A stretch of DNA of 33,517 nt from Promethearchaeota archaeon (GCA_048941265.1 JBHLNT010000030.1:1-33517); one strand, 5' to 3'; shown: positions 9,721 through 23,308, counted from the stretch's first letter. Made by a program: numbers and translations. Notes: generated from the letters alone by a model not told the origin.

Positions 9721-9740
9721 ATCTTGTGAGGTTAGTTAAA

Positions 9741-10292
9741 ATGAATAGCACTGTAAAGGATCAAAATATTATAAAAATTATAATAATGGGATTAGATAAT
9801 AGTGGAAAATCCTCTATTCTATTGAGCTTTAGAGAAGATACAAACTTGCTATCTTATTTTTCTCTTTATCCTACTAAAGGAGTAAGTATTGAGAACCTAA
9901 TTTCTCCGCAGTCTAATATGATAATATGGGAGTTCGGAGGTCAGGAGCGGTATCGCGAAGATCACATTAAAAATCTTAATAAATACCTAAAAGACATTGA
10001 TAAAATAATATTTGTTATTGATATTCAAGATATTGAGAGATACGATTTGGCTTTAGATTATTTCATGGAAATAATGAGTATACTTGAAAAATTTAATATT
10101 AAAGTGGATATCTCAATATATCTTCATAAATATGATCCAAATTTAACAAAACAGGAGAAGTTTAAGGATCTAGACAAAATAATCACTCCAAACTTAATTA
10201 ATAAAATCGAAAATTTAATCCCGTCTGAATATATTTGTAGTTTTTATAAAACTAGCATTTATACGATATTTGAGAAGTTTTTAATAAAGTAA
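9741..10292 (+). CDS. Small GTPase, Rag/Gtr- or Arf-like (copy 1)
   Basis: G1 GLDNSGKSS, G2 PT, G3 WEFGGQ, G4 HKYD, G5 TSIY. GTGAGGT SD-like sequence before ATG 9741 (track start 9726). Confidence 0.88.
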   Translation: MNSTVKDQNIIKIIIMGLDNSGKSSILLSFREDTNLLSYFSLYPTKGVSIENLISPQSNMIIWEFGGQERYREDHIKNLNKYLKDIDKIIFVIDIQDIERYDLALDYFMEIMSILEKFNIKVDISIYLHKYDPNLTKQEKFKDLDKIITPNLINKIENLIPSEYICSFYKTSIYTIFEKFLIK

Positions 10293-10316
10293 ATGAATTT
10301 TAAACATTAAATTTAT

Positions 10317-10760
10317 ATGGTTAACTATATGAATAAAATAGATTGGATTTATATCATTGATGACACTGGAGCAACTATTTTTAGCTATGAGATTCATGTC
10401 CAAGGATCGGGTAATGTTAGTCATGCCTTATTATCCCACTTCCTTTTTGCTTTACAATCAATTGGGAAAAATCTTAAGGATAGTGAAATAAAAAGTATAG
10501 AAATGAGTAATAATAAATTTCTTTTAAGCAAAGAAAAGACAACTCACAATCTCTTTATTTTAAAATCAAATCGGGATGCAGATCCTCAATTAATTAAAAC
10601 ACTTTTAAAACAAATTCAAGATAAATTTGTTAAGAAATTTTTTGGATATAAGAAACTATATGCTGATGACAAAATAGAACTTTTAAATTCTTTTAAAGAA
10701 GATATTAGAGAAATTCTTAAAGAAAAAACTAATATTGAGAAATTTTCTGAAACCTTATAA
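10317..10760 (+). CDS. Stand-alone longin/roadblock-like domain protein (copy 1)
   Basis: WIYIIDDTGATIFSYE...LLSHFLFALQSIGKNL...IKSIEM...LFILKS...LLKQIQDKFVKKF; size and pattern fit a longin fold. Confidence 0.7.
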   Translation: MVNYMNKIDWIYIIDDTGATIFSYEIHVQGSGNVSHALLSHFLFALQSIGKNLKDSEIKSIEMSNNKFLLSKEKTTHNLFILKSNRDADPQLIKTLLKQIQDKFVKKFFGYKKLYADDKIELLNSFKEDIREILKEKTNIEKFSETL

Positions 10761-10901
10761 ATAGCTCAGTTTAATTCCCCAATTTTGATATATTATATTT
10801 TTAATTACCAAGAACAGTTACAGAAAAAACTCAAAACATAAATAATTTTAATTTTATTAAATAGGTATAATTTTTAATATCTTCAAAGGTTGAGTTTAAA
10901 A

Positions 10902-11468
10902 ATGAAGGATACAAGTCAGATGGATAAAAAGATCATGTTAATGGGACTAGAGAACAGTGGAAAATCCTCTATCTTGTTAAGCTTAAAGGAAGATACAAAT
11001 TTATTATCATTCCTTTCCCTAAAGCCTACAAGAGGGGTAAAAATTGAGAATTTTAAAATACCACAATCTAATTTGATTATATGGGAATTTGGTGGACAAG
11101 ATCAATATCGTCAAGAATATTTGGAACATTTTGACAGATATTTTGATAAAGTTGACAATATAATCTATGTTATTGATATCCAAGATATTGATAGACACGA
11201 ATTATCTTTAAGATATTTCAAGGAAGTATTAGATTTACTCAAAAAAAACAATATAAAGGTTGATATTTCAATATATTTCCATAAATTCGATCCACACTTA
11301 ACCAAACAAGAAAAATTCAAAAACATTGATACATTAACTACTCCAGATCTAATTAGGAAAATAAGACAAATTATTCCTACAGAATATAAATATAAATTTT
11401 ATAAGACAAGTATTTATACAGTATTTGACACAATTTTAATAACAACATCCGATGAAAATTTTGCTTAA
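10902..11468 (+). CDS. Small GTPase, Rag/Gtr- or Arf-like (copy 2)
   Basis: GLENSGKSS, KPT, WEFGGQ, HKFD, TSIY; clear paralog of 9741..10292 (track start TTG 10890). Confidence 0.88.
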   Translation: MKDTSQMDKKIMLMGLENSGKSSILLSLKEDTNLLSFLSLKPTRGVKIENFKIPQSNLIIWEFGGQDQYRQEYLEHFDRYFDKVDNIIYVIDIQDIDRHELSLRYFKEVLDLLKKNNIKVDISIYFHKFDPHLTKQEKFKNIDTLTTPDLIRKIRQIIPTEYKYKFYKTSIYTVFDTILITTSDENFA

Positions 11469-11487
11469 ATAGTAAGGTTCCAAAAAC

Positions 11488-11919
11488 ATGAATGTGATAA
11501 ATTGGATTTATATCATTGATAGTTCTGGAGCAACAATTTTAAGTTTTGAAAATCAAATCCAAGGAACCGGTGTCAGTACTTCTGCTTTATTGTCTCATTT
11601 TCTTTTTGCATTACAATCTATTGCGAAAACTCTACAAAACAATGAAATAAGAAGCGTTGAGATGAGTAACAATCGATTCTTTTTATGCAAAGAAAATATG
11701 ACTAACTACTTATTCATAATAAAAACTAATAGAGATGCTGATACTCGCGTTATAACACCAGTGTTGAATGAAATAAAAAACAAATTTCTCGAGAAATTCA
11801 AAGGACATTTTAGACTAGACATTGAAGATAAAATAGCATTGTTAAACGCATTTAAAGAAGAGATTAAGAATATTGTTAATGAAAAAACCAATATCGAGAA
11901 ATTTGTTGACACCCTTTAG
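11488..11919 (+). CDS. Stand-alone longin/roadblock-like domain protein (copy 2)
   Basis: Paralog of 10317..10760 (shared WIYIID, LLSHFLFALQSI, EMSNN, EKTNIEKF). Confidence 0.7.
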   Translation: MNVINWIYIIDSSGATILSFENQIQGTGVSTSALLSHFLFALQSIAKTLQNNEIRSVEMSNNRFFLCKENMTNYLFIIKTNRDADTRVITPVLNEIKNKFLEKFKGHFRLDIEDKIALLNAFKEEIKNIVNEKTNIEKFVDTL

Positions 11920-13584: not shown

Positions 13585-14469
13585 ATGGGTAGGCTTGATG
13601 GGAAGGTAGCAGTAATTACGGGGGGAGCCAGTGGAATTGGCAAGGCATCCGTTGAGATTTTTGTAGCAGAAGGTGCTCATGTCGTATTTGGAGATATTCA
13701 AGATGAGAGAGGCAATGCACTTGTAGATAAGCTAGGACCAAATGCATTATATCTTCATACAAATGTACGTAACGAATCTGAAATTAAGGCATTGATCGAT
13801 CGTGCTATCGATAAATTTGGACGCCTTGATGTTATGTTTAATAATGCGGGATTTGGAGGTGCCTATGGTCCGATAGATGAAACCCCTGTGGATGCATTTG
13901 ATGTAACTATAGAAGTGCTGTTTCGAAGTGTGTTTCTCGGCATTAAACATGCAGCATTAATAATGAAGAAGCAAAAATCAGGAAGTATTATTAATACCGC
14001 AAGTGTTGCAGGTCTTAGGACAGGTATGGGACCTCATCTCTATAGCGCGTGTAAGGCAGCCATAATTCAATTAACTCATACTACTGCTGCTGAATTAGGT
14101 GAATTTAATATTCGCGTAAATTGCATATGTCCCGGAGGTATTGCAACTGCTATATTTGGAAGAGGTCTTGGATTGCCCCAAGACGCGGCAGAAAGAATGG
14201 CTGAATTTTTAAAACTCCGTTTAAAAGAAATACAACCGATTCCATGTGCAGGGTTACCAGAAGATGTTGCTAAAACGGCATTATTTCTTGCAAGTGACGA
14301 TTCCTGCTTTGTATCAGCGCATGCTTTAGTGGTAGATGGCGCATTAATTTGGAAAGGAGTTATTGAGCAGAACTGGGAAGAACTTAATGATTTTTTGGAA
14401 AAGTTGGGCATGGGAACTATAGAAGAGGTTTACAAAAAAGTGAATGCAGATATCGCAAAAATGAAATAA
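13585..14469 (+). CDS. Short-chain dehydrogenase/reductase
   Basis: TGGASGIG, NNAG, YSACK catalytic motif, NCICPG. Confidence 0.95.
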   Translation: MGRLDGKVAVITGGASGIGKASVEIFVAEGAHVVFGDIQDERGNALVDKLGPNALYLHTNVRNESEIKALIDRAIDKFGRLDVMFNNAGFGGAYGPIDETPVDAFDVTIEVLFRSVFLGIKHAALIMKKQKSGSIINTASVAGLRTGMGPHLYSACKAAIIQLTHTTAAELGEFNIRVNCICPGGIATAIFGRGLGLPQDAAERMAEFLKLRLKEIQPIPCAGLPEDVAKTALFLASDDSCFVSAHALVVDGALIWKGVIEQNWEELNDFLEKLGMGTIEEVYKKVNADIAKMK

Positions 14470-14642
14470 TATCTAGTTCTTATATTATCAATTTATTTGT
14501 TTCTTTTATTTTAAAACTTTTAAATAATGTAAAGTCGAATTATTTAATTAAGTTAAAAATTTGTTAATTAATTCAAAGAAATACCAATAGTTAAATTTCT
14601 TGTAAATATCAAAAAAGTCCAAATAATAGAGGTGTCTTTTAA

Positions 14643-17600
14643 TTGTCATCTGAATTTGAAGCAGAATTCTCTTCAACATTCGAAAGTGGTAAAGCTTACT
14701 TTGAGCAAGGTAATTATAAAGATGCGATTAAAAAATTGGACATCGCTCATTCATTTAAACCCACCCATAGAGATACATTAAAACTTCTAGGAGCCTCTTA
14801 TTTAAATATAGGAGCTTATCAATTAGCAATAGCAAAATTTAAAAAAGCAATAGAGTTATATTCTGAAGATAAAGATTTCTATCTTTATCTTGCAAAAGCT
14901 TATCGCGAAGAAAAAAATTACCAAAAGGAAACAGAAATCTATCATCTTCTCTCAGAAAACATTCCTGGTTTTAAAGATTCATTCTTTTTCGAAGCGTTAT
15001 CTTATTATAGAGAAAAAGAATTTATAAAGATTGAAAATATTTTATCAAAAGCAACCCAATTTGATCCATTAGACGACAAAGAAATTAATTTATTAATAGA
15101 ATTAAAAAATTATATTGCAAAAATTCAAGCAAAATTATTGGAGAAAAATTTTTCTAAAAAAACTGTTTATTGGAGGGTTGTATTCTTCCCGATCTTAAAA
15201 AAATATTATTTTTTTACAGAAAGTATTACCCCAGAATGTTTTAGGAATGATGTAAGAAATATGTTGCTCAATATAAGAAATCTTAATGAAATTATTTCGA
15301 TCATTGACACATGTGGATACACTCCACTTTTAATAATGAGTTCAAATCAAGATGAGTATTATGATATTAGGAATCAGATATTTAAAAATATTGATTTTGA
15401 TATTCAGACAGAACACTCATCTTATTCAGTAAAGATCGAAAAAAGATTTGGGATAATTATAGGTGATAAATTTCAAGAATATATCGATTTTTTTAAAGAG
15501 AGAAGTGGATTTGCAGATTTTTTAGAATTAATTAATGAAATCCAAATCAACACTGAAAGAGATATCAATATTGATGTAAACATATTTAAAAATTATAATA
15601 AAGCAGATAAAATTGAATATCTAAAAGAATGTTTTATAGAGTTCTCCAAAATAAAGGATATCATTGATGAGAGATATCATAAGTTAAGATTAAGTAAATT
15701 TAAGGATTATGAGAAATTAAAATGGTGGTTTGATCTTCTAGACAGAAATGAAGAAATATTAAAATTTTCTGATTTTATGCTTTTCGTTCCAATTTCTATT
15801 CCAAAGATCTTATCATATGTGATGATTCGGTTCACTCCTAAAACTAAAGATAAATTGTTAAAGATTATGCTAAATGAATTTAAGAATGATGCTATTATTG
15901 ATGTATTTAAAATTCAAGCTGCAGCACCAGAATATCTTTTGATAATGCAGGCAGATTCATTGTTTGAGTTTTTTGAAATGATAAATTCGATGTTTGATGA
16001 GAAAGGTGTTCATGTGATTGAAACTAAATGTGTTTTACGTCTTTGGAAATATGAAAATTATATTAGTCCTCTTCAACCAAAACCAATTTATACATTTGAT
16101 TTTAAAAATTTGACTAAAGATAATGTGAAAGAGGAATTAAGACCTGAAATTATATGCGGCAAATTATGGAATGAATCTGAAATTATTAACTTTAGAAAAA
16201 ACTACAAATTAGAAGAAAATATTGAAATATCTCGCTGTAAAGATGATTTACATTTTGAAATAGAATATGATAATAAAGATTATAATAAAATAATTAATAG
16301 CAATTCGCTATTTGACGATTACATATATAAAATATCTATAAAATTAGAACGGAGAGATTGGTTGAAGGTATTAATAATGTTAAAATCGATACCAGGTAAA
16401 AAACAAGAAGTTGAGAAACGTATACGCGAAAATATTCTTAACATTGAAAAAAATTATTTTTCTCGCAAGTATTACACAGTTCGGGGTTTATTTGATTATA
16501 TTATATATACGGATTGGCGTAATCTTAATAGTCTTAGAAAGTTTCGGGAAAAAATGACTCAATATTTTAAAGATAACATAATCATTAATTTTCGTTCTTA
16601 TATAGAAGGTAGATTTCTGTCTAGAGATCCAAATCCTCAAAAGCTAAAATCTTATGATATAAATCTTTTAAATGGAATAATTGCGAATTCATTGGATTTA
16701 GCATCAGAAAAAAAAAAAAGAAATTCAGGCAAAATTGATAGTTTACGTAAGAAGTTTTTATTTTTATTAGATAATCGATTGATAAATATTACCGAAAAAC
16801 CTAATTTTTCCAATTATGCTATTGAAATGCATATTGAAAATTTTGTTCATGCATTCATAAGATTTAAAGTTCGAGATTATGAACATTTTGTTAATAAATG
16901 GAAAGAAATGGAAAATAAATTATTTCTTCTAAGGACATTTGAACCCTTAAGTGATCCCTTAAATTTTATGTGTATTATTATAACAACAAATTTGAGGACT
17001 TTGTTTTGGTTTATTAAAAAGTTAGATTGTTATTGTTCATTTATCTCGATAAGTTTGATTCATAAACAGGGATTTTATCAAAAGAATTTTAGTATAGATG
17101 AATGGATTCATAATAGATGCAAGCCCTGTATAAAAGCTTTAGAAGAATTCAATTGTGATGGGTGTAAATGGTATGCTAAACGACGAACAATTCCTTCTAT
17201 TTATCCTTTCACAAATGAGAAGTTAAGAGAATGTATAATAAATTTTCGTTATCCTGAAAAGGATTTTGAAGAATGTAAAATTGCAATTATAAAATTATCT
17301 CTAAACTTCGATGAATGTATCACTTATGGTGATCTGGAAAATGTTTACATAAAAAATTTTTATAAGGATGAAATAATTGATAAGTTTCGTGAAGCATTGA
17401 ATACTGGAGCTAATATTATTCTCTTTCCGGAACTAACTATTCCTAAAGAAGAGATAATTGAAGAAATAATTAAAATTATAAAACAGGGTAATTTAAAAAA
17501 TGAAAATGGTCAGTATCCTCTTGACCAAAATTTTCTTGTTGTCGCAGGATCTTTATATGCAAAACGGGGAAGCTTTTACTTCAATCAAGCACCGATCATT

Positions 17601-18314
17601 ACAAACTTTTATAATCACCCTTTAAGTAAAGATAAGAATATCAAAAGATTTGATGCTATTAAATGTTATTTATCATCTAGAGAAAAAGATCATAACAAAT
17701 ACTATGAGGACAGGAGGATCTATAGAGGGAATGGATATATTATTTTAAAAAATACCCCTTTCGGAGACATTGGTGTTGTAATTTGTCGAGATTTTTTAGA
17801 AAGTGCTGTTATAGATAAAATAAAAGAAAAAGTTGATATATTATTAGTCCCTTCAGCTAATAAAAGTGGAGAATTTTCGGATAAATTATCTACTATAGCA
17901 GGAGAGAACTATATTTTTATCGCATATGCTAATAATGAGTATCATGAAAGCAAAATGCATGATGATATCAAAACAACAGGATTTTACGGTCCAGTTCGTA
18001 AAAATAGTAAAATCCAAACTGATGCAGAATATTGGGAGAGAAAAATACCACCAAAAAAAGAAAAATATCGGATAATTTATCAAGATTTTGACGTTAAAGA
18101 GTTGGATTATTATAGAGCAAACAGAGGAGGACTTTCTAATGATGGGCTCTGGTATTATCCAGACTGCTCAAATTATAAAAGACATAACATTACTTATCAT
18201 AATAAATTAAATCGTGAATTTAAAAAAGCTAGAAAAAATATGATAAATTTATTTTTAAGCATAAATAGAACAAAAGCTGATGAGACTTCAAAAAAATTTG
18301 AGCAATATCTCTGA
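14643..18314 (+). CDS. Multidomain protein: N-terminal TPRs, repeated Lrp/AsnC RAM-like domains, Cys4 cluster, C-terminal carbon-nitrogen hydrolase (nitrilase-family) domain
   Basis: GAGGTG SD before TTG. TPR motifs (GKAYFEQGNYKDAI, LGASYLNIGAYQLAI). RAM-like segments such as VLIMLKSIPGKKQEV...YYTVRGLFDYII. Nitrilase triad ILFPE (E930), K1007, VICRDF (C1048). Confidence 0.7.
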   Translation: MSSEFEAEFSSTFESGKAYFEQGNYKDAIKKLDIAHSFKPTHRDTLKLLGASYLNIGAYQLAIAKFKKAIELYSEDKDFYLYLAKAYREEKNYQKETEIYHLLSENIPGFKDSFFFEALSYYREKEFIKIENILSKATQFDPLDDKEINLLIELKNYIAKIQAKLLEKNFSKKTVYWRVVFFPILKKYYFFTESITPECFRNDVRNMLLNIRNLNEIISIIDTCGYTPLLIMSSNQDEYYDIRNQIFKNIDFDIQTEHSSYSVKIEKRFGIIIGDKFQEYIDFFKERSGFADFLELINEIQINTERDINIDVNIFKNYNKADKIEYLKECFIEFSKIKDIIDERYHKLRLSKFKDYEKLKWWFDLLDRNEEILKFSDFMLFVPISIPKILSYVMIRFTPKTKDKLLKIMLNEFKNDAIIDVFKIQAAAPEYLLIMQADSLFEFFEMINSMFDEKGVHVIETKCVLRLWKYENYISPLQPKPIYTFDFKNLTKDNVKEELRPEIICGKLWNESEIINFRKNYKLEENIEISRCKDDLHFEIEYDNKDYNKIINSNSLFDDYIYKISIKLERRDWLKVLIMLKSIPGKKQEVEKRIRENILNIEKNYFSRKYYTVRGLFDYIIYTDWRNLNSLRKFREKMTQYFKDNIIINFRSYIEGRFLSRDPNPQKLKSYDINLLNGIIANSLDLASEKKKRNSGKIDSLRKKFLFLLDNRLINITEKPNFSNYAIEMHIENFVHAFIRFKVRDYEHFVNKWKEMENKLFLLRTFEPLSDPLNFMCIIITTNLRTLFWFIKKLDCYCSFISISLIHKQGFYQKNFSIDEWIHNRCKPCIKALEEFNCDGCKWYAKRRTIPSIYPFTNEKLRECIINFRYPEKDFEECKIAIIKLSLNFDECITYGDLENVYIKNFYKDEIIDKFREALNTGANIILFPELTIPKEEIIEEIIKIIKQGNLKNENGQYPLDQNFLVVAGSLYAKRGSFYFNQAPIITNFYNHPLSKDKNIKRFDAIKCYLSSREKDHNKYYEDRRIYRGNGYIILKNTPFGDIGVVICRDFLESAVIDKIKEKVDILLVPSANKSGEFSDKLSTIAGENYIFIAYANNEYHESKMHDDIKTTGFYGPVRKNSKIQTDAEYWERKIPPKKEKYRIIYQDFDVKELDYYRANRGGLSNDGLWYYPDCSNYKRHNITYHNKLNREFKKARKNMINLFLSINRTKADETSKKFEQYL

Positions 18315-18469
18315 TATTGAATAAAATTATTTTTCAATTTATTCTTAATCTTTTACTAATGATAATCTCTATGTACTAAGCATTATGCAAAGCTTAAATA
18401 TCAAAAATTCAAATTATAATTATTTAATATTATAATCTGATTCAAAATATTCTAAAAATTTTAATTAAA

Positions 18470-18709
18470 GTGGTAAAAATCGTTGAAATTATTGTCCATG
18501 AAGAGAATTGCACAGGATGCCGCATATGTCAATTAATATGTTCATCCACTTACAAACAAAGATTCTCTCCAGCTGAAGCTTTCATCCAAATCGACGATGT
18601 CTATGAAATAACTCCCAAAATTTCATTTTCAGATAGTTGTATTCTCTGTGGTCAATGTGCAAGACATTGTCTTTATGGAGCATTAGAATTGAAGGAGGTT
18701 GAGGATTAA
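18470..18709 (+). CDS. Ferredoxin (2x[4Fe-4S] type), AOR partner
   Basis: CTGCRICQLIC and CILCGQCARHC; stop overlaps the AOR start (TAATG). Confidence 0.88.
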   Translation: MVKIVEIIVHEENCTGCRICQLICSSTYKQRFSPAEAFIQIDDVYEITPKISFSDSCILCGQCARHCLYGALELKEVED

Positions 18710-20613
18710 TGGATTTCTATGGCTATACTGGTAAAATTCTAAATATTAATTTATCTAATAATAAAGTTTTCCTTGAAGATGAGAAAGTTGAGGATTTAAC
18801 TAAATTCATTGGTGGCATAGGAATGAACTGCAAACTTGGAGCTGAACGTCTTAAACCTAATACGAATCCTTTTTCTCCTGAGAATCCCATTATTTTAGGT
18901 GTAGGACCTTTAGTTGGAACAATAACTCCAGGAGCTTCTCGAACCGTAGGGTTATCGAAATTTCCAGCAACCGGAGCTATCGCAAATTCTTGTGGAAGCA
19001 TGAGTTTTGGTTTCAATTTAAAACAAGCAGGGTACGATCATGTAATCATTTCAGGTAAATCAGAAAAGCCTGTTTATCTTCTCATCTTAGATGATCATGT
19101 TGAACTTGCGAATGCATCAGAATTATGGGGTCAAGATATAGTTGAAACGACTAATAAACTATGGAAAGACCATCAAGGTTGTGGAGTGATTTCAATAGGT
19201 CAAGCGGGTGAGAATTTAGTGTTCGGGGCTCTAACTCTCATTGATAAAACTGCAACATTCGGTCGTGGAGGTCTAGGAGCGATAATGGGTTCAAAAAATC
19301 TAAAAGCTATAGTAGCAAAAGGTACTAAGGGAATCTCCATCTCGAATCCTAAAGAATTTAAAAATCTTTATAAAAAACAAATCGAAAGAATTCGAAATTA
19401 TCCTCAACGTGATTCATGGATTGAATTAGGTATGTTAAGAAGTTTACCTATTAATTTAATGTTAGCTGCGAAAGGACAAAAAGAAAAAGTAAAACAGGCA
19501 AGTGAAAAATTTTATCTCAAGGAATTGAAAAAGCGGCGTATTGCATGCCCATCGTGTCCTATGGCAGATAAAGATATTCTTGAAATTAAAGAGGGAGAAT
19601 TCAATGGATTAATAAATTATACCTCATCAATCATAAACCCATTATTAATGCTTACTCTTGATAGTTTAGAAAATGCCCATCAAGCAGTTAAGATTTTTGA
19701 TCTTATTGGAAGATATGGATTAGATTCCTTAACTATAACCTCTCTTTTTGAATTTTTAGGAAAAATGCATGATAAAGGAGCAATCACTAATGATGATCTC
19801 GGTTTTGAATGGAAACAAGATTTTAATACTTTAATTCGTTTGATTGAAATCATTGCAAATCGAGAAGGAAGCTTTGGAAATACTCTTGCCGATGGATGGA
19901 AAAAATTAGCAGAATTTAATGACACCTTTGCAAATGAAATGCTAACTATCAAAGGATTAGATGTGGTCTTTGAGCCTCGCTTCTTAAGACTTGGTACAAT
20001 GGAATTCGAGCAAGTGGTCAATCCTAAGGGAGCACATGTAGCTTCAGGAGGGTCTCCCACTTATGTAGGTGCTGGAGGAACAATGGAGAAATTTAGAAAT
20101 CATTTTAAACGGATGGGAATCCCCAATTCAGCAATAGCTCGGGTGTTTATTCCGCCAATAAGAGAAATGGGAATACATGTGGGTCGGTTGACTCGATATT
20201 CAGAGGATTGGTATACTGTTTTAACAAGCTTAGGATTATGCGCAAGAGCTCAGATAAATCGTTTTTGGGGACTTGAATTAGCTACTGAATTTTATAATGC
20301 TGTGACCGGTTTTGAATTAGTATCAGATGATTTAAGAAAAGCTGCTGAACGATCTTGGAACCTTCTTAAGATTATGAATATGAAAGAAGGATTTACACGA
20401 AAAAGTGATGCATTTCCTAAAGAATGGTTCAAACCACTTAAGTTAGGTGAGAATAATCTTGAATTTAAGGATTTTTTTGGAGGGACCATTATTACTATTG
20501 ACATTGCAAATCAATTACTCGATGATTATTATGATGAACGAGGATGGAATAAACAAAATGGTGAACCAACCCAAGAAAAGATAGAAGATTTAGGATTGAC
20601 CAAATTTCTTTAA
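18709..20613 (+). CDS. Tungsten-dependent aldehyde:ferredoxin oxidoreductase family protein
   Basis: GYTGKILNINLS, FIGGIG, GRGGLGAIMGSKNLKAI, YGLD, SLGLC, LDDYYDERGW. Confidence 0.92.
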   Translation: MDFYGYTGKILNINLSNNKVFLEDEKVEDLTKFIGGIGMNCKLGAERLKPNTNPFSPENPIILGVGPLVGTITPGASRTVGLSKFPATGAIANSCGSMSFGFNLKQAGYDHVIISGKSEKPVYLLILDDHVELANASELWGQDIVETTNKLWKDHQGCGVISIGQAGENLVFGALTLIDKTATFGRGGLGAIMGSKNLKAIVAKGTKGISISNPKEFKNLYKKQIERIRNYPQRDSWIELGMLRSLPINLMLAAKGQKEKVKQASEKFYLKELKKRRIACPSCPMADKDILEIKEGEFNGLINYTSSIINPLLMLTLDSLENAHQAVKIFDLIGRYGLDSLTITSLFEFLGKMHDKGAITNDDLGFEWKQDFNTLIRLIEIIANREGSFGNTLADGWKKLAEFNDTFANEMLTIKGLDVVFEPRFLRLGTMEFEQVVNPKGAHVASGGSPTYVGAGGTMEKFRNHFKRMGIPNSAIARVFIPPIREMGIHVGRLTRYSEDWYTVLTSLGLCARAQINRFWGLELATEFYNAVTGFELVSDDLRKAAERSWNLLKIMNMKEGFTRKSDAFPKEWFKPLKLGENNLEFKDFFGGTIITIDIANQLLDDYYDERGWNKQNGEPTQEKIEDLGLTKFL

Positions 20614-21949: not shown

Positions 21950-22105
21950 GATTTGTTTTTCTTTTTTTTTTCTAAAACATGCAAATAAGTAGAATTGTTC
22001 CAGTTTTATTCTTTTTTTTTCCTACTTCCTAAAATTTTTTAATGATAATTATCTTAATGTTTAACAGATGAAATTTAATTAATTACAAATTTGGGAGATC
22101 TCAAC

Positions 22106-23308
22106 ATGAGTAAAGATATGAATAGCGATTTAAATGGAATAGATGATGTGCAAGTGTTAAAAGACATGCTTAATTCTCAGAGAATAGAGTTAGAACAAAA
22201 ATATCAAGATGTCAAATCGTTAGAAGCCACCATAAACGAATTAATTGCTGAACTAAAAAATTATAAAAAGTTGGCAGAAAACTATGATGCTCAAAAACAA
22301 AATGACACCGCCTTAAAAAATATGCAGGGATATGTTGTAGAGTTAGAAAATAAGGTCTACCAATTAAATGAGCAAATTTCTGAATTAGTAAAAGAGAAGA
22401 GTAGGATAATTCAAAAAAGTGAAAAATTACCCTCTGAGGAAGAATACACTTCCACATTAGAAAATAAGATTGTTGAATATGATGAAAAAATTGATAGCCT
22501 TGAAAAAGTTAATAAACTTCATCGTAATACAATAGACAAATTAAGTGCTGAACACTCTTCTACGGTTTCTAATCTAGAAAATAAAATTAAAGAACAAAAC
22601 GATTACGTCGCTTCCCTAGTAAAAGAAAATAGAGAACTTCGAAAAGCAGCTGAAATAAATAAGCTTGATCAACTCGGTGGGGATATTGAAGGTAATGTAA
22701 TTAGGCTGCAAAAAGAAATTACTATTTTGAAAAAAGAGAATAAAGAATTAATTGAAAAGAATCAGGTATTGAAAGCAGCTCTACTGTTACATGTAGATGT
22801 GGAAACAAAAGAATTAACTGATACTATAATCCAACAAGAATTGCTGGGTCAAAAACAAAACACCTCAGGAATTAACGAAAAAAATGATAGCGAGAAAGCA
22901 GAACAGATTACAGATATATCTACAGGGAAAGTTCAAGAATTAGTGAAAAAACGACATGAAGCTATCGAAACTCGAGAAGTACCTATCTCTTTGCCAGAAT
23001 CTAATATAAAACCTCTAAAAACCATCGAAGAACCAATAAATGAGCAAATTCGTAAAGAACAAGAAATTATGGCTCCATTACAGGAAAAAATTACCCCAAA
23101 AAGTCCACCTCAAGCTGCTGAAATACCAGATATCGATGAAATCGGAGTTATTGAAACTATTGATGGCAGAAGGAAGTGCCCGATATGTGCTAATGAAAAT
23201 CTAAGACAAATCAGAGAAGTTGAAGATAAAACGAAAATTATATCGGCATATCCAAGAATGTACGGGAAAAAATTTAAATGTGGACAATGTGGTGCTGAAT
23301 GGCGGTAA
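22106..23308 (+). CDS. Long coiled-coil protein with C-terminal Zn ribbon
   Basis: GGAG SD before ATG 22106 (track TTG 22091); heptad coiled coil, Pro-rich linker, CPIC...CGQCGAEW. Confidence 0.82.
   Translation: MSKDMNSDLNGIDDVQVLKDMLNSQRIELEQKYQDVKSLEATINELIAELKNYKKLAENYDAQKQNDTALKNMQGYVVELENKVYQLNEQISELVKEKSRIIQKSEKLPSEEEYTSTLENKIVEYDEKIDSLEKVNKLHRNTIDKLSAEHSSTVSNLENKIKEQNDYVASLVKENRELRKAAEINKLDQLGGDIEGNVIRLQKEITILKKENKELIEKNQVLKAALLLHVDVETKELTDTIIQQELLGQKQNTSGINEKNDSEKAEQITDISTGKVQELVKKRHEAIETREVPISLPESNIKPLKTIEEPINEQIRKEQEIMAPLQEKITPKSPPQAAEIPDIDEIGVIETIDGRRKCPICANENLRQIREVEDKTKIISAYPRMYGKKFKCGQCGAEWR

Follow-up and report, generated by a model that had tools for sequence, protein, structure and literature searches.

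The closest described counterparts of the protein considered here are DRT1 (UG1) and UG5, anti-phage systems that join a reverse transcriptase (RT) with a nitrilase (PDB structure 9yfd; PMC13275509, PMC9226505, PMC9122126). According to these accounts, the nitrilase domains of DRT1 and UG5 are proven anti-phage effectors, the DRT1 nitrilase requires oligomerization, and neither the substrate of these domains nor the way in which they kill is known (PMC13275509); the RT-associated hydrolases (class 3) are described as a clade apart from other nitrilases (Mestre et al., PMC9226505). Nitrilases are also reported among the effectors activated by cyclic oligoadenylates (cOA; PMC8157118), and the CARF-nitrilases (PADLOC profile PDLC01989, 'CARF_m7--CARF_nitrilase') are predicted cOA-activated ancillary effectors of type III CRISPR systems. 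Here we describe a giant open reading frame (ORF) located at positions 14643-18314 of a 33,517-nt stretch of Promethearchaeota DNA (GCA_048941265.1, JBHLNT010000030.1:1-33517; the whole of this stretch is referred to below as the window). It encodes a protein of 1223 amino acids (aa), in which TPRs, four modules resembling the Lrp/AsnC family of regulators with their ligand-binding RAM domains, a four-cysteine (Cys4) knuckle and a divergent nitrilase domain follow one another in a single chain.

Like DRT1 and UG5, the window protein comprises about 1200 aa in one chain and carries at its C-terminus a nitrilase that belongs to the same divergent clade and has intact catalytic residues; unlike in DRT1, its sensor part is made of four Lrp/AsnC modules and the Cys4 knuckle. 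Neither a reverse transcriptase nor an alpha-repeat domain was found in Pfam scans of the window protein and 33 homologues and, being RT-free, the family is not a DRT. With the CARF-nitrilases it shares the logic of a small-molecule sensor fused to the same type of nitrilase, but the sensor fold differs (ferredoxin-like in RAM, Rossmann-like in CARF), and no CARF family was found in the same scans. As for the sensor modules, the RAM fold with its lead-in strand is shared with Lrp/AsnC regulators and stand-alone RAM proteins (FL11/PH1519, LrpA 1i1g, Grp 2e7w, STS042 2zbc), as apparently are the G-x-x-D motif of the third module, the T-x-T motif present in the second module of most family members, and the part before the third module that resembles a helix-turn-helix (HTH). 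However, Lrp/AsnC regulators are monomers of about 15 kDa that assemble into octamers, whereas the window protein carries four modules in one chain, with degenerate HTH parts and a fused enzyme. A precedent for tandem Lrp/AsnC-like modules serving a non-transcriptional function in one chain is provided by the siroheme decarboxylase NirDL/AhbA-AhbB (4czc, 4czd), although NirDL has two modules, not four, and no nitrilase.

None of the parts is new in itself, and the logic of a sensor joined to a nitrilase effector has precedents in DRT1 and the CARF-nitrilases. The original prediction, which was made from the DNA sequence alone, had not recognized the combination as one already described. In agreement with this, our literature search, which covered the main texts of papers, found neither a fusion of Lrp/AsnC or RAM domains to a nitrilase nor an Lrp-type sensor in anti-phage defence; this means that such proteins were not found, not that they are absent.

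Architecture and Authenticity of the Giant Protein

The domain assignments rest on about 30 remote homologues, on an AlphaFold model built on their alignment, on structure matches and on profile-profile comparison. A HMMER search with aa 150-1223 against 1.84 billion representative proteins retrieved 50 proteins at E ≤1e-3, about 30 of which match in the C-terminal domain as well as in the central region, while in the others the similarity is limited to the C-terminal domain. The family alignment comprises 33 members, its first row beginning at aa 150, and the residue counts given below refer to 27-29 aligned homologues. With this 33-row alignment AlphaFold produced a model with a mean predicted local distance difference test score (pLDDT) of 76.2 and a predicted template modelling score (pTM) of 0.74, while the single-sequence model of aa 150-1223 (pLDDT 31.6) was unusable. 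For the fold search VIA, each of 48,161 PDB representatives was aligned to the AlphaFold model. Scanned one by one with Pfam, 22 of the 33 family members match AsnC_trans_reg and 11 match CN_hydrolase, and a 20-member family profile finds the Lrp/AsnC regulator PH1519 in the PDB at E 4.6e-8. Other searches were less productive: word-indexed homologue searches returned solely the window protein itself, P0003 and P0004, and the ESM Atlas yielded no usable match for aa 150-880 and, for aa 860-1223, nothing except clusters named 'hypothetical protein'.

The original prediction had proposed a giant fusion of TPRs, several Lrp/RAM domains, a Cys4 motif and a nitrilase, an anatomy that our analysis confirms almost residue by residue. 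Its elements, all on the plus strand, are as follows.

14643-18314, plus strand: giant ORF, 1223 aa, TTG start, single uninterrupted frame
14670-15077, plus strand: TPR array, aa ~10-145 (Pfam TPR_2/TPR_11, consensus TPR structures in the PDB)
15168-15446, plus strand: RAM-like unit 1, aa ~176-268 with its lead-in strand (model residues 27-119)
15468-15776, plus strand: helical insert ahead of RAM2, aa ~276-378 (model helices 127-229, HTH-like by structure only)
15777-16052, plus strand: RAM unit 2, aa ~379-470 (VIA, family profile, hhalign)
16116-16322, plus strand: HTH-like module ahead of RAM3, aa ~492-560 (hhalign, VIA)
16323-16604, plus strand: RAM unit 3, aa ~561-654 (model; Lrp loop motif G615-x-x-D618)
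16650-16811, plus strand: linker with one helix, then a low-confidence stretch (model helix 521-532; 'LKSYDINLL...')
16812-17075, plus strand: RAM-like unit 4, aa ~724-811 (model; suggested to pack with unit 3)
17094-17192, plus strand: Cys4 knuckle CxxC-x8-CxxC (C826, C829, C838, C841), presumed zinc site
17226-18122, plus strand: nitrilase-superfamily domain, aa ~862-1160 (VIA, Foldseek, PADLOC RTasNitrilase)
18201-18308, plus strand: C-terminal long helix, aa ~1187-1222 (model helix 1038-1073, low confidence)

The window comes from a 5.0-Mb metagenome-assembled genome (MAG) of 361 contigs with 91% completeness, and the GC content of the giant ORF (26.5%) is below that of the genome (30.5%), placing it at the 5th percentile. 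These two features would suit an assembly chimera or a decaying gene devoid of function, an explanation that we consider close to refuted. Both ends of the gene are bridged by contigs of a second sample from the same study (13828-15200 and 17435-18731), and contigs of a second study cover the ORF at 99-100% identity; the ORF is therefore not an assembly artefact. Decay is contradicted by the intact 1223-aa frame, by the homologue P0003, which has exactly the same length at 71% identity, and by the conservation of the catalytic and Cys4 residues across about 30 homologues. As a separate observation, a contig of run X3 joins position 14520 to 19478 with 36 unrelated letters in between, and a contig of run X4 skips 15723-17455 with a 24-letter side; these may represent other strains or organisms.

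TPR Array and RAM Units

The TPRs had been expected at aa 10-140, and two kinds of evidence agree on them: Pfam matches (TPR_2 at E 5.2e-7, TPR_11 at E 9.1e-7) and the alignment of consensus-TPR structures of the PDB to aa 12-143 (E 2.3e-28), in keeping with a tandem of 34-residue helix-turn-helix repeats. Within the family the array is confined to the window protein and P0003. In the alignment starting at aa 150 one of the 33 members matches TPR families, and P0004 and P0007 begin with a methionine just ahead of RAM1. The array is a late addition to the protein.

The central region was predicted to fold into RAM domains, and in the alignment-based AlphaFold model it does fold as ferredoxin-like units: there are four strand-helix-strand-strand-helix-strand units, each having an extra lead-in strand as in Lrp, with the first core strand beginning at aa 189, 389, 574 and 735, respectively, the originally proposed starts being 186, 391, 575 and 736. 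When compared with each other by hhalign, the repeats align in register at E 2.6e-5 to 5.9e-4 (the latter value for units 1 and 2), while linker controls give E ≥0.13. Units 2 and 3 are the best preserved. Unit 2 is matched in the VIA search by MtbAldR (Z 11.3), AhbA/B (Z 9.8), LrpA 1i1g (Z 9.0, root-mean-square deviation (rmsd) 2.1) and the stand-alone RAM protein 2zbc (Z 8.8), and module 2 aligns with the Lrp proteins of the same genome at P 93.5% and E 2.2e-7. The third module (aa 486-665) aligns with the genome's full-length Lrp alignment at P 90.5% and E 1.3e-6, the match covering template positions 9-127, HTH included. Unit 1, barely probed by the VIA search, matches the genome's own Lrp proteins in register with RAM at P 59% and E 9.2e-5. 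Unit 4 (P 8%, E 0.0043 in the same comparison) is, as far as sequence goes, the weakest element of the anatomy. Considered together with unit 3, it corresponds to known folds: model residues 419-663 match the tandem ferredoxin-like protein 3mcs (Z 10.1, 179 residues aligned), and residues 364-665 match the fused double-Lrp protein NirDL 4czc (Z 9.8, 213 residues aligned, 8% identity). These tandem matches suggest that units 3 and 4 pair within the chain.

The similarity to full-length Lrp proteins raises the question whether the protein could be a DNA-binding one-component regulator, the HTH remnants of which bind DNA while the nitrilase provides an enzymatic or substrate-sensing input. This would fit the alignment of module 3 with a full-length Lrp, HTH region included, and the fact that matches to full-length AsnC/Lrp structures span the helical parts: model residues 138-324 superpose on the AsnC structure 2cg4_B (Z 9.6, rmsd 4.8, 137 residues aligned), and the halophilic Lrp 8q90 matches residues 345-510 (Z 8.5). 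Across the helical parts the rmsd of such matches is 4.5-5.7, and Pfam HTH families match none of the 33 family members. The shorter, bacterial-type subfamily (P0016-P0031) lacks the helices inserted before RAM2, and the linker ahead of RAM4 is modelled with low confidence (pLDDT <50 over model residues 532-572). Besides, the conserved catalytic residues argue for an active enzyme. We thus regard a DNA-binding role as improbable. The only HTH that appears detectable by sequence is that of the module ahead of RAM3 (aa ~492-560), which had been overlooked in the original prediction. Of the two 'HTH-start' remnants listed there, the first (aa ~143-154) is a single helix before RAM1, and the second (aa ~672-687) consists of a helix that leads into the low-confidence stretch.

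The structural likeness to NirDL and AhbA/B also allows the assumption that the Lrp-like array is a scaffold for binding a substrate, as in those enzymes, and that the nitrilase acts on the bound, cofactor-like compound or feeds ammonia to it. Besides the above Z scores of 9.8 for both proteins, this explanation can invoke the CN-hydrolase domains that function as glutaminases in NAD+ synthetase and are matched by the family profile. However, ordinary Lrp regulators match the array equally well (Z 9-11.3), the identity to NirDL is just 8%, and no tetrapyrrole or other cofactor genes lie nearby, which makes the scaffold role improbable as well.

Cys4 Knuckle and Nitrilase Domain

Between the RAM array and the nitrilase lies the Cys4 motif foreseen at aa 826. 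Of the 29 homologues aligned, 28 have each of its four cysteines (C826, C829, C838, C841), and all have P828; the knuckle presumably binds a metal.

The C-terminal domain has the four-layer alpha-beta-beta-alpha sandwich of the nitrilase superfamily: its best structural match in the VIA search is mouse Nit2 (Z 21.9, rmsd 2.6, 222 residues aligned), followed by further superfamily members, 24 entries in total at Z 15.5-21.9, and Foldseek agrees at E 2.4e-9. An intact E930-K1007-C1048 triad had been proposed. Glu and Cys of the triad are invariant (27/27 each) and so is a fourth residue absent from that proposal, E1014 (27/27), while Lys occupies the K1007 column in 19 of the 27 homologues. Some of the homologues pass the CN_hydrolase gathering cut-off (e.g., P0009 with 28.6 bits), and the window protein itself is a very divergent member of the superfamily. 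The long helix that follows the domain is modelled with little confidence, the averages for 10-residue blocks being pLDDT 43-62 and model residues 1038-1056 falling below 50.

A relationship to DRT-type nitrilases had been suggested as well, and it is supported by defence-system profiles, by separation from the ordinary enzymes of the same genome and by the closest outsiders of the family. The PADLOC profile of RT-nitrilases (RTasNitrilase, PDLC03804) matches the window protein at E 7e-7, the match being restricted to the nitrilase part (profile positions 167-309 of 397). Over the 33 family members, PADLOC profiles match as follows: RTasNitrilase 24, RT_UG5-nitrilase 16, CARF_nitrilase 10 and Drt1a 8; the best E value in the family is 8.4e-27 for RTasNitrilase versus 2e-9 for Pfam CN_hydrolase. 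Within the genome the two profiles are mutually exclusive: PF00795 finds six canonical CN hydrolase loci and misses the giant ORF, while PDLC03804 finds the giant ORF only. In the control genomes PDLC03804 has matches in 1 of 14 and PF00795 in 12 of 14.

When a hidden Markov model (HMM) was built from the nitrilase domains of the family, its members obtained 136-224 bits and the 21 closest proteins outside it 64-134 bits, whereas only three of the six canonical CN hydrolases of the genome were detected, none above 27 bits. Twenty of the 21 nearest outsiders are matched by the DRT and CARF nitrilase profiles, and their joint profile finds the DRT1 structure 9yfd at E 1.6e-24, versus 1.1e-8 for the best ordinary nitrilase; the link of the family to the solved DRT1 is thus indirect, via these outsiders. 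Among the ten outsiders scanned with Pfam, one is a fusion with an nSTAND3 NTPase and a PUA domain, one with a phosphoribosyltransferase and one with a class II aldolase. In a quick maximum-likelihood tree, built without DRT or CARF sequences, the six canonical enzymes split off with a support of 93. The nitrilase, then, is not of the housekeeping type and has an affinity to the defence-type profiles.

Repeat-Nitrilases of Other Asgard Archaea

The family profile, when searched against other Asgard genomes, matches only in its nitrilase part (profile positions ~570-860) in 135 of 399, with a best E value of 5.4e-40. The proteins concerned constitute a common Asgard family, often present in two copies per genome and encoded by ORFs of ~830-900 or 1240-1295 aa; they begin with TPR-type repeats, carry a nitrilase of the same DRT-like clade at the C-terminus, and have neither a P-loop nor an RT (examples are L044:3721-7437 in G003, L045:3266-7057 in G131 and L046:2232-4745 in G353). 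The repeat-nitrilases of G353 (837 aa) and G003 (1238 aa) resemble the window protein in this general arrangement, but they lack both the RAM array and the Cys4 knuckle, and their nitrilase domains are ~22-30% identical to that of the window protein. Between distant families of the Asgard repeat-nitrilases the identity of the domain reaches 58%. We considered whether these proteins might be DRT1 and rejected this, since the Drt1a profile, run on five Asgard genomes, matched nitrilase parts only, in two of the five.

A 462-aa protein from a genome of the same class (L047:91-1479, G060 contig C1, minus strand) has a nitrilase domain with a direct match to DRT1 9yfd (E 6.5e-13) and one to the family profile (E 5.4e-40); its gene adjoins an ORF of 1135 aa on the opposite strand.

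Genomic Context and Distribution

The surroundings of the giant ORF in the window are formed by the following elements, of which the two neighbours lie outside the proposed system.

13585-14469, plus strand: short-chain dehydrogenase (SDR), upstream neighbour (Pfam adh_short_C2, E 3.2e-55)
14470-18469, no strand assigned: segment inserted relative to G003, comprising the ORF and AT-rich flanks of ~170 nt and ~155 nt (synteny)
18470-20613, plus strand: 79-aa 2x[4Fe-4S] ferredoxin and aldehyde:ferredoxin oxidoreductase (AFOR), downstream neighbours

In another genome of the same genus (G003, contig C17) the genes are arranged in the order orf203, SDR, small ferredoxin, AFOR, orf172, Fer4 protein, orf405, orf276, orf518, i.e., as in the window save for the giant ORF. 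SDR and AFOR are 90% and 88% identical between the two genomes, and the gap between them is ~330 nt in G003 and 4.24 kb in the window. The giant gene is, consequently, a precise single-gene indel relative to G003, which is what had been proposed when it was described as standing alone like an accessory insertion. An exact 13-nt direct repeat (14603-14615 and 18395-18407) lies approximately at the boundaries of the indel; as four exact 13-nt repeats occur in the same 4.35-kb AT-rich stretch, we treat the one flanking the ORF as due to chance.

Two further genomes of the genus have other genes between the SDR and AFOR orthologues (L015:6042-10318 in G005 and L016:6400-10681 in G009), and the site is therefore locally variable. 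It is occupied there by an oxidoreductase of the old yellow enzyme (OYE) type, a flavin enzyme, by a coiled-coil protein related to orf405 of the window (in both genomes) and by an alpha/beta hydrolase (in G005 only).

Among 400 Asgard genomes searched with the family profile, the RAM array turned up in the window's genome only. The named relatives come from MAGs of Hodarchaeota (~50% identity), Helarchaeota, Methanophagales, Methanoperedens and Brocadiales, and are annotated as 'hypothetical protein' or 'predicted amidohydrolase'. Profile searches of genome contigs gave no locus with one alignment of the family and one locus, in Methanoperedens (L048), with another; the search of metagenome contigs gave two. 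The homologue in L004 stands alone after an MNT-HepT toxin-antitoxin pair, among housekeeping genes, and that in L048 stands alone before genes resembling 2-oxoacid:ferredoxin oxidoreductases, as named from their translations. No neighbouring gene is common to the three contexts seen (the window, L004 and L048), and no CRISPR genes were found near the giant ORF. Searches of viral contigs with two alignments of the family found no relative, and tblastn searches of plasmids found no match to the nitrilase part or to P0017. The distribution of the family is thus patchy, its presence or absence varying even within the genus.

Proposed Function and Alternatives

In Lrp proteins the RAM domains are described as dimerizing via their sheets, with ligand pockets lying between dimers, and ligand binding commonly drives dimers into octamers or shifts the conformation (PMC2995911). 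In Grp, D102 holds the amino group of the ligand, while the ligand's carboxylate contacts the G99 backbone together with T132 and T134 from the adjacent dimer (PMC2504300), and the octamer is stabilized by ligand binding (PMC2504300, PMC2995911). The window protein appears to have retained part of this site. In the RAM3 loop the equivalents of Grp G99 and D102 are G615 (28/29) and D618 (29/29), and in RAM2 the G-x-x-[DN] motif and the T-x-T motif of the last strand are kept in most members of the family. This retention suggests that one composite pocket or more has survived and that the array, with its four modules, represents a pseudo-oligomer built into the chain. Nitrilases are a class of enzymes active only as oligomers.

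Based on these considerations, we propose that the four Lrp/AsnC-type modules would act within one chain as a built-in pseudo-oligomer sensing a small molecule, the likeliest candidates being amino acids and metabolites related to them. The ligand would alter the conformation of the array or the association of chains with one another, and the array would control the C-terminal nitrilase through the Cys4 knuckle. The assembled, active hydrolase could then cleave a C-N bond of an essential metabolite, arresting the cell or the virus. The N-terminal TPRs would add a protein-binding surface and may dock a protein partner. In short, the protein may be a stand-alone, horizontally mobile nitrilase effector gated by ligand and assembly, a tentative reading to which we assign a probability of roughly 0.45. 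Ligand binding, gating by assembly, the type of substrate and the role in conflict are all inferred by analogy. In the earlier concept of a single-chain pseudo-oligomeric Lrp sensor controlling a hydrolase, the anatomical part, four modules ahead of a nitrilase, has stood, and the control itself is suggested by analogy with Lrp proteins and DRT1. A role in conflict or suicide is favoured by the affinity of the clade, the sporadic distribution and the single-gene indel. A bolder version, possible though in our opinion doubtful, would make the protein the first effector of immunity or suicide to be gated by a metabolite sensor of the Lrp/RAM type: the chain would mimic half of an Lrp octamer, read a signal from the amino-acid or nucleotide pool perturbed by infection, assemble and thereby activate a nitrilase of the DRT1 type.

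Several observations weigh against this proposal. As to the sensor, the window protein taken alone has no AsnC_trans_reg match at E ≤1 in Pfam, a genome scan with PF01037 at E ≤0.01 misses it, its own RAM2 loop lacks the Gly, and the two RAM2 motifs are degraded in it, as is RAM2 in the Asgard subclade that includes the window protein. As to the enzyme, the score against CN_hydrolase is 11.1 bits (E 0.24), below the gathering cut-off of 23.2, and the K1007 column contains Arg in 8 of 27 homologues (e.g., P0010, P0020 and P0027), which reflects an unusual variant of the active site or else an alignment that has slipped by a few residues. As to the link with defence, DRT1 (9yfd) is not among the PDB matches of the family profile at E ≤1, and the nitrilase domain of the window protein alone has no PDB match at E ≤10. 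In the quick tree, which is midpoint-rooted, was built without DRT or CARF sequences and comes from a search not run to completion, the family is grouped together with two short fragments at a support of 82. The only mildly low GC content of the ORF is not taken as evidence of transfer. Finally, the same nitrilase clade occurs in abundant and well-conserved proteins of Asgard archaea, a pattern that resembles a conserved cellular family more than a sporadic defence gene; the term 'defence-type' may therefore be too narrow, and the clade may have cellular roles too.

Some of these arguments would favour the main rival explanation, an allosterically regulated metabolic amidase, i.e., an accessory catabolic or detoxifying enzyme that acts on an ordinary amide or carbamoyl substrate under Lrp-type amino-acid feedback and takes no part in conflicts. 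RAM domains are classically known to report amino-acid status (PMC2995911), and the commonness and good conservation of the clade in other Asgard proteins would suit a metabolic function. In the PDB, the 20-member family profile matches the CN-hydrolase (glutaminase) domain of NAD+ synthetase at E 3.9e-7, and a homologue is listed as 'predicted amidohydrolase' in one of the databases. The neighbours are redox or metabolic genes (SDR, AFOR and the 2-oxoacid:ferredoxin oxidoreductase-like genes), and not defence genes, in two of the three contexts. On the other hand, the nitrilase is remote from the genome's six canonical CN hydrolases and close to the profiles of defence proteins, the contexts seen contain no conserved operon partner or pathway, the presence of the gene varies within the genus, and both the size of the protein and its TPR and zinc add-ons are unusual for a simple catabolic enzyme. 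We consider the metabolic explanation less likely than the gated effector. Were it nevertheless correct, the protein would still be an uncharacterized and unusually elaborate allosteric amidase.

Should the bolder version prove correct, RAM would join CARF, SAVED and WYL as a sensor module of prokaryotic immunity, and the substrate of defence nitrilases could be approached in a simple way, without an RT, through a protein from the archaeal lineage that is closest to eukaryotes. The RT-free coupling of the same type of nitrilase to a classical sensor would make a simpler system, which could serve to find both the activating signal and the substrate. The protein would also illustrate how an entire oligomeric regulator can be accommodated in one chain.

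Other Features of the Window

A 405-aa coiled-coil protein is encoded at 22091-23308 of the window. It has a weak match to BBP1_C, a domain of the yeast spindle pole body (E 8.3e-6), and its relatives are those located at the variable spot in G005 and G009. Upstream of the SDR gene, at 9726-11919, there are two tandem pairs, each consisting of a Gtr1/RagA/Arf-like small GTPase (188 and 192 aa) and an ORF of 143-147 aa. The latter ORFs have no Pfam match and may encode partners of the Roadblock/longin type; a related pair is present in G009.

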